From Anaerolineales bacterium (GTDB lineage Bacteria > Chloroflexota > Anaerolineae > Anaerolineales > UBA6663): a stretch of DNA of 29,518 bases. Position numbers and translations under genes: made by a program. How positions within the stretch are numbered: the first letter of the stretch is position 1; each line of letters starts with the position of its first letter. Positions 4,070 to 10,921 of the stretch are shown one piece after another. A model generated the notes under the pieces. That model was not told the origin of the DNA. It ran no database searches and was given only the letters and a program-made list of their open reading frames with translations. The DNA lies in NCBI GenBank assembly GCA_043754665.1, contig JAYUUW010000081.1:1-29518 (forward strand), in the 5' to 3' direction.

Positions 4070-7000
4070 CTACAGCCCGGCGGCCGGCGGCGTGCTGCCC
4101 GGTGCCGGCCCGCCGAGTGACTTGCCGCCGCCCGGCGTATCCGGCTTCTTCTCGTCGTCCTGCTTTTCTTCCTGCGACTGCCCGCCGTCCGCGTCCAGCG
4201 CTCGGATGGCGCCCGAAATCAGGTGCGAGCTGGCGTCTTGGATGACCAGCAGCTTGCCTTGGATAAGCAGGTACGACTGCGTGGCGGCGTAGTTGGCCGG
4301 CAGCTTGGCCAGCCCGGTCTCCTTGGTCAGCGCGCCGTGCGCCTCGTACAGCACCTGCCGGAAGTCGCCGATGGCCGCTTGCATTTCAGTCTGGATCGCC
4401 TCGCCCTCGCCTTGCAGCGCCAGCCGTTCTTGCAACGTCATGACCTTCACGGCCGGGTCGCCGGCGGCCTTTTGCCCGAGCTTGGCCAGCGAGTCGGCGT
4501 CGCCCTTGGCTTGCAGCAGCCAGGTATCAAACTTATCGGCCAGCGCCTCAAACCGCGCCTGGCTCGGGATCTTGAGGCTCACCGCCAGGCCGTCTTTGCC
4601 GAACTCAGCCGAGAAGCGCCCACCGTACTTGCCCACCGACTTGATCGCCCCGGCTACCTCGGCCACTTGCCCGGCCGGGTTCATGCCTTGAGCGGCGTGG
4701 AACAGTTTGAGCGCGTTGTCGAGCATGGCCGATAGGCGCTGCGGCACGTCCATGGCCGGGGCCGTACCGCCGGGGCCAAAGTCGCCCACCTTCTCGCGCT
4801 CGGTCACCTCGCGCCGCACGCCGCCGCCGGTGAAGTAGCCGCCGCCCTCGCTCTGGTTGATCTTCGCGCCCCGGTCGGAGATTTGCTCGATCAGGCTGGC
4901 TTGCTGCCCCGCGTCGGTGGTCTTCAGCAGTTCCTGCTGGAGTTTGTCGATGTCGGCTTGGAACGCGGCCACCTCCGCCTTGCTGATGGTCTTGACCTCC
5001 ACGATGCCGACGTTGGCCGACTTCATCATGTCCTTGACCACCTGCTGGGTGGCCTCGTCGCCGCTCGCCACCGCGTCCTGGAACATCAGGTTGAGCATCA
5101 TTTCCTGCTCTTTGCGCGCCTGCGAGGCCGACAGCTTGGCGCGCAGTTCGGGCGCCAGTTGGTCGAGCAGGTGCATCCGGCGCGGGTCGGTGAAGAAGTC
5201 GGCATACAGCAGCATTTGCAGCCGGCCAGGGTCCACGCCGGCGCGGCCCGCCATGAACGACCGCGCCTGGTCGCGGTGCTCCGACGACAGGCTGCCCAGC
5301 GACGACATATCGAGGTCGCTGCCGAAGCTGCCCTGCGAGCCGGTGCGCCTGAAGTTCTCCAGTTCGCCGGGGTCGAGGTCCAGGCCGTTGATGTAGGCTT
5401 GCAGGTCCTGCCACAAGCTATTGCGCCAGGCGTTCAGCCGCTGCCCCGCCGCCGACTGGTTGCCCAGCGTCAGCGAGAGCTTCTGCCAGCCGCCGCACTG
5501 CGTCAGCACGTCTTTCGGCCCCAGCAGGTCAATCGCCTGGCTGACGATCTGATCCGCTTCTTCGCGCGTGATCTTCTGTTCGGCCAGGTCAACCGCCATG
5601 GTCGCCAGCTTGCCGCTCACCGACTTGGAGCCGCCGGCCTTCATCGCTTCCAGGTAGGCCTTCAGGCGGGCGTAGGCCGGCGAGTCGGCCGGGATGGTGT
5701 ACAGCAGGTCCTCGGCCGAACGCCCGCTCTTGGAGACCGCCTCGGCCACGCCCAGTTCGTTGATGGCCCGCTCGGCGATCTGGGCCTGCTCGGCTTTGGG
5801 CAGCCGGTCGAGCTCCTTGATGCCGGGGTACGCCCGCCCAGCCGCGCCCATGCCTTCCAGCAGGTCTTTGGGCCGAATGATCTTGCTGCGGAAGGTCTTG
5901 CCCGCGCCGTACAGGTCGATCAGCGCGGCGGCGGTGTTGATGATGGCCTCGACCAAGACCGCCGAAATTTGTTCCTTGGTAACCAGTTCGGTGCCGGTCT
6001 TCACGGCGGTTTGGGCCGCCGTGGTCATGTCGTCGTACTTCTCCCAACTCATGGCCGCTGGTGCGGCGCTGGCCCCCACGCCGATCATAAGTGGGATCAG
6101 CGTCGCCAACCCGCCCGAGGCGAACTCGGCCACCAGGAAGGCGATCATCGCCGCACCGCCCAGCAGGTTGCTAATTAGTTCCTCATTGGCCTGGTAATCG
6201 GCCATGATGAACTTGCGCTGGGCCATCTTGGTGAACGGCTTGTCCCACGGCACGCCCGACGCGCCCGGCCCGCCCATGATCTGGTGGTGGATGGGCAGCA
6301 GGTCACGGTGGTCGAGGTCGTCTTCTGAGATGGCCTTGATCGTCTGGAGGATGTGCTCGTCCACTTGCGTGAACGACTCCATGATCTGGTTGCGGCCCTC
6401 TTCCGGCGTGGCCGTGGGGAAGTCCTTGATCTTGCCGCTGACCATCAGCGCGTACAGCGCCGGGTTCTCGTCGGTGATCTTGCCCATCACGATGCCCAGC
6501 TCGTCGTACTGCTTCTTCACCACGGCCCAGTGCGCCATCTTGACGCCCGGCTCGTTGTCAAACGGTTGGAAGGGCGGGGCGCTCGGGTCAAAGTGGGCGA
6601 TCTCGCGGTCCTCGTCGCCTTCCTCGCCCTGGCCGTACATGGCCGGCTTCATGCCCGACCAGCCTACGGCAATTGTCGACAACTTGGCCTGTTGGTCTTG
6701 GGCTTGCAGCAGCAATTCAGCGATCTTCTGCTGCTCCTCGATCTTGGCTTGGGCCGCGGCGGCCTGCGTCGGACCCGGCGCGGTGGGGTCGTTCTGCTCC
6801 GGCGCGGCCAGGCGCTGCGCCTCCTGCGCCACGAAGTCGTGGTTGCTGTTGAGGTGGCCGAGGGCCACGCCCTTCACATCGCTCTTGAACTTGGCCTCCA
6901 GCGCCGCCACCTCGGGGATGGCCTTGGGGTTCGCGCCGTTCTCAATCGCCTGCTCGAACAGCGCCGCCCAGTTGGCGTCCAGGTTCCAAATGCCCGCGCC

Positions 7001-10921: not shown

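Follow-up and report, generated by a model that had tools for sequence, protein, structure and literature searches.

How does a single gene come to encode several effector-like units strung around a DUF4157 domain, and what part is played by the short motif, a hydrophobic residue followed by Gln-Arg (hereafter PhiQR), that recurs at the joints between these units? The question is raised by P0001, a composite injection-system cargo or effector protein of 2,283 amino acids (aa) encoded at positions 4070..10921 of the minus strand of a 29,518-nucleotide (nt) stretch of DNA that was analysed here at its full length (the window; contig JAYUUW010000081.1 of assembly GCA_043754665.1). The source is a metagenome-assembled genome (MAG) of an uncultured member of Anaerolineales (Chloroflexota), which consists of 993 contigs and is 79% complete. 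Uncultured Anaerolineales also supply the nearest relatives of its TrmI gene, with identities of up to 85%. DUF4157 is the most widespread cargo marker of extracellular contractile injection systems (eCIS), and recent papers describe its function as unknown. Across the DUF4157 family, PhiQR motifs are concentrated at fixed distances from the domain, and P0001 is, by sequence comparison, a fusion of units that exist separately elsewhere, including at least two toxin-like cargo units. The explanation that we favour, albeit with somewhat less than even confidence, is that P0001 is a Streptomyces-type contractile injection system (CIS) cargo that arose by in-frame fusion and whose PhiQR motifs are recognised by DUF4157, most likely with proteolytic processing as the consequence.

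Joints of P0001 and the PhiQR motif in the DUF4157 family

P0001 is a single open frame, with a stop only 6 codons upstream, and all its parts lie on the minus strand. The leader (aa 1-99; 10625..10921) consists of a disordered N-terminus rich in Pro, Ala and Glu that is followed by LQQQRGNRHVQRLMR...PPVQR (aa 75-99, nt 10625-10699; PPVQR itself is aa 95-99). The scaffold of unit 1 (aa 100-575; 9197..10624) combines a helical region with a hydrophobic hairpin (aa 407-446 and 479-502; nt 9416-9703) and is followed by a kinase-like domain (aa 586-812; 8486..9166). Pro-rich linker 1 (aa 813-845; 8387..8485) ends in PVQPFRRGQR, with RRGQR at aa 831-835 (8417-8431; QR codons 8417-8422), and leads into the DUF4157/eCIS_core domain, a minimal zincin with a structured region at aa 846-973 (8003..8386) that contains HEVAH (aa 929-933; 8123-8137). 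Linker 2 (aa 974-1019; 7865..8002), also Pro-rich, carries PTLQR (aa 993-997; 7931-7945) and precedes module 2, a DUF922-like domain (aa ~1020-1176; 7394..7864) with HEDAH (aa 1103-1107; 7601-7615). Linker 3 (aa 1177-1234; 7220..7393), rich in Lys, Glu and Pro, ends in PVQMWR...RPVQR (RPVQR at aa 1230-1234; 7220-7234). Unit 3 again starts with a scaffold (aa 1235-1780; 5582..7219) made of a helical region and a hydrophobic hairpin (aa 1582-1624 and 1652-1673; nt 5903-6178), and its C-terminal domain (aa 1781-2250; 4172..5581) comprises a putative nucleotidyltransferase-like core (GSQGSFGSDLD, 5309-5341, and later FTDPRR) and a helical bundle. In the hydropathy scan, the hairpin of either unit shows up as some 40 hydrophobic, Gly/Ala-rich residues with a second hydrophobic helix behind them, and the two hairpin regions show marginal similarity to each other (E-value 0.034).

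Each joint of P0001 is a disordered Pro-rich linker with the family motif P-x-[VIL]-Q-R-[KQ]. This modular anatomy, including the linkers ending in PPVQR, RRGQR, PTLQR and RPVQR, had been read from the sequence in the original prediction and holds at every position, as does its caveat that QR occurs within modules as well: of the 13 QR dipeptides in P0001, 4 mark the proposed borders, 2 more are in the leader and 7 lie inside modules. Within P0001 alone, QR is not significantly associated with Pro-rich segments (3 of 13, with 10.6% of the length being Pro-rich), and the claim for the motif rests on the family data. The narrower pattern P-x(0,1)-[VILM]-QR occurs four times in P0001 (two of the matches overlap at PPVQR, leaving three sites) against 0.13 expected, with 0 of 20,000 shuffles reaching this count.

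The family sample comprised 196 proteins, namely, the best 150 DUF4157 clusters and 46 long DUF4157 proteins, to the exclusion of P0001 and its neighbour, the cargo protein P0002. The domains were located with a hidden Markov model (HMM) built from the sampled proteins, and the sample is biased towards multi-copy proteins and relatives of the P0001 domain. Over whole proteins, [VILM]QR was found 917 times versus 189 +/- 17 in shuffled sequences (4.85-fold); five control tripeptides (with the endings RQ, QK, ER, NR and HR) reached 1.2 to 1.45 times the expectation, and PhiQQ, a component of the domain's own motif, 2.9 times. In the flanks of the domain, defined as 120 aa upstream and 70 aa downstream and shuffled within the flank, the excess of [VILM]QR is 8.7-fold and 11.4-fold in two protein sets, compared with about 2.6-fold for PhiQK and about 1 for PhiRQ, PhiER and PhiKR. 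At least one flank motif is present in 160 of the 196 proteins (29 of 50 and 131 of 146 in the two sets). The original prediction hinged on an enrichment of the motif at boundaries across the family, and with these counts it survives strongly.

The motif is positioned as well as enriched. The density of [VILM]QR is 0.04 per 1000 aa inside the domain, about 12 at 21-60 aa upstream, 13.8 at 1-20 aa downstream, 8.5 at 41-60 aa downstream, and 0.97 at distances greater than 200 aa, the expectation from composition being 0.57. Counted from the first His of HExxH, sharp peaks are found at -95..-91 (60 of 402 domains) and +15..+19 (69 of 402), followed by a broad hump at +50..+69. In P0001, the residue preceding the upstream QR is at -96, beside the first peak, and LQR is at +66, within the hump. 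The sequence logo features P at -3, V, I or L at -1 (76-78%) and K or Q at +2, in surroundings rich in Glu, Gly, Ser and Ala; in the subgroup with the motif at +17, the next folded module begins right behind [VIL]QRK. The possibility that the +15..+19 peak is simply the domain's own HxxQQ motif was excluded, given that the peak is 12-17 residues past HExxH.

The domain itself has the sequence features of a zincin. DUF4157 (Pfam match aa 863-940; E-value 8e-27, 93.7 bits against a cut-off of 22) is the sole Pfam family that matches P0001 above the gathering threshold. The match includes HExxH(xxQ) in the form HEVAHTVQQ (aa 929-937), and a putative third ligand, E961 (8039-8041), is located in a later helix (aa 959-972) of an AlphaFold2 (AF2) model; the putative zinc-site residues are H929, E930, H933 and E961. 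In this model of aa 815-1014 (111-sequence alignment; mean predicted local distance difference test score (pLDDT) 80.8, core >90), a compact domain spans aa 846-973, and both RRGQR and PTLQR fall in flanks with pLDDT <50. The best shape match in the PDB, a weak one (E-value 0.3, TM-score 0.49), is the minigluzincin zymogen proabylysin (4jiu). Minigluzincins are minimal zincins roughly 100 aa long in which HExxH is followed by a Glu on a helix further on, as in the DUF4157 domain of P0001; in their zymogen, the protein's own tail lies in the cleft and blocks it. The likeness is one of shape. In the family sample, HExxH is retained in 402 of the 408 DUF4157 domains.

A full HMMER profile scan identified DUF4157 in 63,098 representative clusters (50% identity). 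All of the best 150 of these by summed score contain 2-6 matched stretches, in proteins of up to 4,682 aa (including P0054-P0199), and 156 of the 196 sampled proteins, in a sample biased towards multi-copy ones, carry 2-6 copies of the domain. Giant multi-DUF4157 proteins constitute a large, apparently undescribed class. In P0001, DUF4157 is N-terminal to module 2 and unit 3, yet about 750 aa of unit 1 stand ahead of it, placing the domain in the interior of the protein. This internal position had been noticed at the outset and stands, but it is not the exception it was taken for, considering the number of multi-copy proteins in the sample.

Separate occurrence of the units

Unit 3 (aa ~1238-2280) has counterparts in other genomes and metagenomes that exist as stand-alone proteins of 1,066-1,168 aa, to which it is 28-35% identical across roughly 1,000 aa; its homologs are P0003, L012/P0202, L013, L014, P0200 and P0203-P0206. 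A scan for related loci with the single unit-3 sequence gave no match. In P0003, a 2,749-aa protein from Solirubrobacterales, the homologous region is aa 412-1303. All these homologs with an intact N-terminus have a leader of their own, LQRxxGNxxVxQRL; the short linker, rich in Pro and Ala, that leads directly into the conserved module contains another 1-5 [VLIAT]QR motifs. For example, in P0200 (aa 56-105), the leader is followed by four tandem P-V-x-Q-R repeats, 6-8 residues apart, straight before the folded module. None of the unit-3 homologs contains DUF4157 in cis, and a DUF4157 gene is nearby in two of the three loci examined. The similarity between P0001 and the stand-alone proteins starts at aa 1226-1250, and the leaders of the latter end in [VLIT]QR at the aligned position.

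The same leader is shared by L013, L014, L016, L017, P0200, P0203-P0206, P0003 and P0208, a small open reading frame (ORF) in the window. L016 and L017 are stand-alone leader-bearing proteins that are 27-28% identical to the scaffold of unit 1 over about 460-520 aa. The kinase-like domain is 37% identical to a domain of L018, where it occurs in a different protein context and is followed by P-VQR. The proposed borders of P0001 are thus domain borders, as the original prediction had it: unit 3 and the parts of unit 1 are separate proteins or parts of other proteins elsewhere, and homology starts about 5-20 aa from the QR motifs.

P0012, from another Anaerolineales MAG, brings the fusion into focus. 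Its leader is 41% identical to that of P0001, both ending in PVQR, and in P0012 it runs after 10 aa into DUF4157 and module 2 (52% identity to aa 849-1180 of P0001); in P0001, the leader block and the block of DUF4157 and module 2 are separated by 749 aa. Because P0012 joins the same leader directly to DUF4157 and module 2, unit 1 of P0001 looks inserted between two QR motifs. RRGQR of P0001 and PVQR of P0012 are equidistant from the first DUF4157 helix, and an equivalent of the linker-1 motif, F.(R/P)GQR, is found in P0009, P0020 and P0012. Further downstream, P0012 keeps [IL]QR-x-PEP after DUF4157 (AAIQRQPEP) and VQM-VQRF after module 2, with the linkers around them having diverged.

The two heads are less readily named. 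In the head of unit 1, a Gly-rich loop (GAGFGVY), K625, E640, D746 (in HGD) and D761 (in IDF) follow one another in the canonical kinase order, and the four charged residues are all kept in its sole homolog, L018; the catalytic-loop Asn of HGDxxxxN is missing. The named language-model neighbours of this head are the OspG, RIO1, ABC1 and APH kinase clusters (0.92-0.94), and Pfam gave no match, even at relaxed thresholds. Across 12 homologs of the unit-3 head, TG-x(7)-D-x-D, F-x-D-P-R-x-H, TGSQGSFGSDLD and FFTD do not vary, in accord with the nucleotidyltransferase motif hG[GS]-x(7-13)-DxD and its third carboxylate. The core of the AF2 model of this head (pLDDT 85-95) has a strand-loop-strand-helix-helix-strand topology, with strands at model residues 98-100, 113-115 and 150-152, and weak shape matches in the ESM-Atlas include NTP_transf_2/HEPN (TM-score 0.40) and AbiEii (0.36). 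Foldseek searches with the 491-aa model against PDB, VIA-wide and AFDB returned only helical-bundle matches, the bundle being dominant, and the language-model atlas yielded no usable match. Relaxed-threshold Pfam searches gave nothing for the scaffolds or for either head, and whole-protein and profile searches against PDB sequences produced nothing useful for any module of P0001. Because the evidence consists of motifs and weak fold similarity, with no confirmation from profiles or PDB folds, the labels kinase-like and nucleotidyltransferase-like are only probable; motifs supporting these two labels of the original prediction were found, but a Pfam match for either head and a PDB fold match for the nucleotidyltransferase-like one were not obtained.

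Module 2 resembles PF06037 (DUF922) over aa 1067-1156 with 22.4 bits, under the cut-off of 27 (18.4 bits in P0012), and the counterpart modules of P0003 and P0011 pass the cut-off with 32.1 and 47.4 bits, respectively. Judging by these profile scores, module 2 is a divergent DUF922-like HExxH domain. A DUF922-like domain precedes unit 3 in P0003 as well, in a protein without DUF4157. As a separate observation, the homologs of the unit-1 scaffold terminate in another small HExxH domain, with HESIH or HELAH (at L016:865-1404 (-) and at the C-terminal end of the L017 ORF), that matches DUF6647 and DUF6782 weakly; this fits one scaffold with interchangeable heads.

Processing, recognition or relic

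Under the explanation that we favour, separate cargo units would have been fused in frame, namely, a loading-type leader, unit 1, DUF4157, the DUF922-like domain and unit 3, where unit 1 would pair a membrane-hairpin scaffold with a minimal kinase-like domain and unit 3 would pair such a scaffold with a probable nucleotidyltransferase-like domain. PhiQR would be the element recognised by the DUF4157 zincin, in cis in P0001 and in trans for cargo without the domain. Proteolysis at or beside the motif, either while the cargo is being loaded or once it has been injected, would then take the leader off and free the units from one another, so that two or three effectors would come from a single gene. 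The original prediction placed the cut after xQR; zincins more typically cut ahead of the hydrophobic residue, and cleavage there is no less likely than cleavage behind Arg.

Such a mechanism would be reminiscent of MARTX toxins, giant proteins that each combine several effector domains with an internal protease, which cuts at a short motif in the unstructured linkers between these domains. The MARTX protease is a cysteine protease (the cysteine protease domain, CPD) that cuts after Leu, and these toxins are secreted by the type I route and contain RTX repeats; Pfam scans of P0001 detected neither a cysteine protease domain nor RTX repeats, and P0001 is not a MARTX member. The likeness would be an analogy of mechanism only, not homology.

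Processing is favoured because HExxH is kept in almost all domains of the family sample, because the motif flanks the domain on either side, at set distances and close enough to be reached, because it marks the exact start of the mature modules, and because a role as releasing peptidase was proposed for DUF4157 in 2012 (PMC3482391). The latter proposal, of an autoproteolytic toxin-releasing peptidase, was made on architectural grounds (Zhang et al. 2012, PMC3482391, section 13), and the release of effectors by DUF4157, which the original prediction put forward, had been anticipated there. A broader version, in which PhiQR is the universal DUF4157 substrate, DUF4157 is a leader and linker peptidase in cis or in trans, and the giants with 2-6 copies are true polyproteins cut in the tube or in the target cell, seems to us rather doubtful.

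P0001 shares with the DUF4157-containing polymorphic toxins of eCIS (PMC3482391; Geller et al. 2021, PMC8213781; Danov et al. 2024, PMC11297309) HExxH with a downstream Glu, a genomic association with a contractile injection locus, C-terminal domains that are toxin-like and variable, and linkers of considerable length. The canonical eCIS toxin has DUF4157 near the N-terminus and a single toxin, whereas P0001 has a complete effector unit ahead of the domain and a second HExxH domain behind it. Flanking PhiQR motifs or their fixed positions are not described in these three papers.

Several observations weigh against processing. AF2 placed neither of the two QR motifs in the active-site cleft of DUF4157, both linkers being disordered, and the site preceding the domain in P0001 is GQR rather than PhiQR. 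The stand-alone unit-3 proteins carry up to 4-6 tandem copies of PhiQR (P0200), which is odd for a single processing site, and PhiQR also ends the leaders of cargo without DUF4157 in cis, which suits a recognition or loading motif equally well. The assembly evidence discussed below includes no Logan contig of run X2 that bridges nt 8273-8293 inside DUF4157. In AlgoCIS, loading still takes place for cargo devoid of DUF4157, and the toxicity of Cgo1 is independent of its HExxH motifs (PMC8894135; bioRxiv 10.64898/2026.05.27.728243). Sle2 of Streptomyces lividans, a DUF4157 protein, behaves like an adaptor that binds the tube initiator and spike and the N-terminal part of Sle1 (PMC13277306). Finally, no report of proteolytic processing was found in the DUF4157/eCIS literature searched.

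Because of this evidence, from AlgoCIS, Sle2, the tandem copies and the literature, the main rival is an uncleaved motif for loading or adaptor recognition, a possibility that we take seriously without considering it probable. Here, the leader and the PhiQR linkers would dock to the Afp15-type ATPase, to the tube lumen, or to DUF4157 acting as an adaptor to the tube initiator or spike, and P0001, as one chain with several enzymatic heads, would thread through the tube like the tape-measure-type effectors Tme and Sle1. Cgo1 and Cgo2, which are cargo proteins of AlgoCIS, consist of a disordered N-terminal loading region, DUF4157 and a variable C-terminal domain (with a second HExxH in Cgo1), and experiments on them show that loading depends on the N-terminal region and that DUF4157 is dispensable (PMC8894135; bioRxiv 10.64898/2026.05.27.728243); unlike P0001, each of the two is a single unit. 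The contacts of Sle2 with SlpT2/spike proteins and with the N-terminal part of Sle1, the stability of which requires Sle2 (PMC13277306), are in line with an adaptor, and PhiQR at leader ends without DUF4157 in cis, together with the tandem repeats, resembles linear motifs of the avidity type.

The similarity of P0001 to Tme of S. davawensis (PMC11126660) and to Sle1/Sle2 of S. lividans (PMC13277306) extends to a very long ORF (2,247 aa in Tme, which is described as a single long effector in PMC11126660), predicted transmembrane helices (aa 407-502 and aa 1582-1673 are the hairpins of P0001), coiled coils, a C-terminal enzymatic head differing from homolog to homolog, and a gene position immediately upstream of the sheath gene, together with a DUF4157 partner. 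The tme-like class is defined by DUF4157 in the N-terminal region (PMC11126660), whereas the domain of P0001 starts at aa 846-863. Tme combines the N-terminal DUF4157 with a single nuclease head and Sle1 lacks DUF4157, whereas P0001 has two tandem units of scaffold plus head with DUF4157 between them, and no tape-measure family is among its Pfam matches with E-values up to 5. A pure adaptor is hard to square with the near-universal retention of HExxH, and an uncleaved loading motif does not sit well with PhiQR occurring directly behind the domain as well as at joints inside the protein that are a long way from the N-terminus.

It is improbable that the internal motifs of P0001 are scars of fusion, that is, leftovers of the leaders of individual units or stretches used in cassette recombination, like VENN in CdiA, with no function where they now sit. 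Elsewhere, the units do have leaders of their own ending in PhiQR and are shuffled among proteins (P0003, P0012, L016-L018), and the non-significant placement of QR in Pro-rich linkers within P0001 alone is in line with relics. However, the motifs were kept while the neighbouring linkers of P0001 and P0012 diverged, and the spacing to HExxH is fixed among proteins that share less than 50% identity, which argues for positional selection.

It is very unlikely that two metagenomic DUF4157 cargo genes were joined during assembly inside the conserved domain, such that the 2,283-aa protein would not be real as such: the MAG is fragmented and incomplete, the gene in run X2 is tiled by three Logan contigs that meet inside DUF4157 (8273-8293, a 21-nt overlap) and in the leader motif (10678-10706), and one of these contigs has 5 variant bases at 8315-8339, but the three are equal in depth (8.4, 7.6 and 8.7), the contig on the module-1 side already extends past linker 1 as far as aa 883, within DUF4157, no long repeat of the genome coincides with the 8273-8293 joint, P0003 independently has DUF922 ahead of unit 3, and internal and multiple DUF4157 domains are common. 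Because the module-1-side contig runs to aa 883, an internal DUF4157 behind unit 1 holds in any event. Of the sampled words of the gene, 98-99% are present in two sediment metagenome runs from a single study. The breaks between the Logan contigs fall in the two most conserved cargo elements, the N-terminal strand of DUF4157 and the GN motif of the leader; their positions suggest that the sample contained a number of related cargo genes or strains.

DUF4157, its link to eCIS toxins, the idea of autoprocessing and multi-toxin proteins are already known. No description of the PhiQR motif or its positions was found in the DUF4157/eCIS literature searched, and relative to that literature, three findings appear to be new: PhiQR at fixed positions and at the leader ends of cargo without DUF4157 in cis, the frequency of multi-copy DUF4157 proteins, and the concrete case of a whole effector unit lodged between a leader and DUF4157. 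For a cargo marker this widespread, PhiQR is a concrete candidate substrate or recognition site that makes the question of DUF4157 function directly testable, by a peptide assay or by re-search of existing particle proteomes. If PhiQR is a processing site, several effectors would come from one gene, cargo boundaries would be predictable from sequence, and the motif could serve as a release tag for engineered injection systems; if it is a loading motif, the loading signal would be defined more sharply. Either way, P0001 documents the recombination of cargo units at these joints.

Gene neighbourhood and related genes in the MAG

P0001 belongs to a run of genes on the minus strand, transcribed in the order leader-only ORF, ATPase, P0002, P0001, Pvc16_N cap-like gene, sheath and gp19-type tube, and thus is encoded within a contractile injection locus, as is typical of the DUF4157 family. 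Cargo directly upstream of the sheath gene is the arrangement reported for Streptomyces CIS effectors (PMC13277306). The leader-only ORF, P0208 (121 aa; 16248..16613), codes for the cargo leader motif IQQRRGNASVQRLIRGLQTAQR between a disordered N-terminus and some 40 residues of low complexity; the ORF lies 1 base upstream of the start of the ATPase gene and had no match in a Pfam scan. Its product might serve as a decoy, might regulate or plug loading, or might be a remnant. The next gene (14102..16246) encodes an Afp15/Pvc15-type AAA ATPase with a winged-helix domain (PF22977, PF00004).

The second cargo protein, P0002 (1,048 aa; 10940..14086), consists of a leader, an N-terminal DUF4157 domain (Pfam E-value 1.3e-26) and three diverged repeats of about 290 aa (copy-versus-copy E-values 2e-29 and 2e-16). 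Each repeat has a hydrophobic Gly/Ala-rich stretch, the linkers between repeats are acidic and Pro-rich, and DIQR precedes the second repeat; no Pfam family matches the repeats. Downstream of P0001, Pfam matches identify the Pvc16_N cap-like gene (3154-3972), the sheath gene (1426-2985) and the gp19-type tube gene (960-1409), all on the minus strand. A 128-aa ORF downstream of the tube gene (436-822, minus strand) has no Pfam match. Past the injection genes, the window contains a LysM cluster, namely, LysM with an M23 peptidase (19506-21137, plus strand), LysM alone (25916-27271, minus strand) and a zinc ribbon with two LysM domains (27620-28795, minus strand).

A regular-expression scan of the whole MAG for leader-bearing genes returned only P0001, with a pattern too strict to catch P0002 or P0208. 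The same MAG encodes two more DUF4157 proteins, L001 and L002, on contigs C222 and C763, with open frames of 594 and 1,087 aa; PhiQR motifs are present in these proteins both upstream of the domain, as EDEEP-VQR and EDEEP-LQR repeats, and downstream of it.

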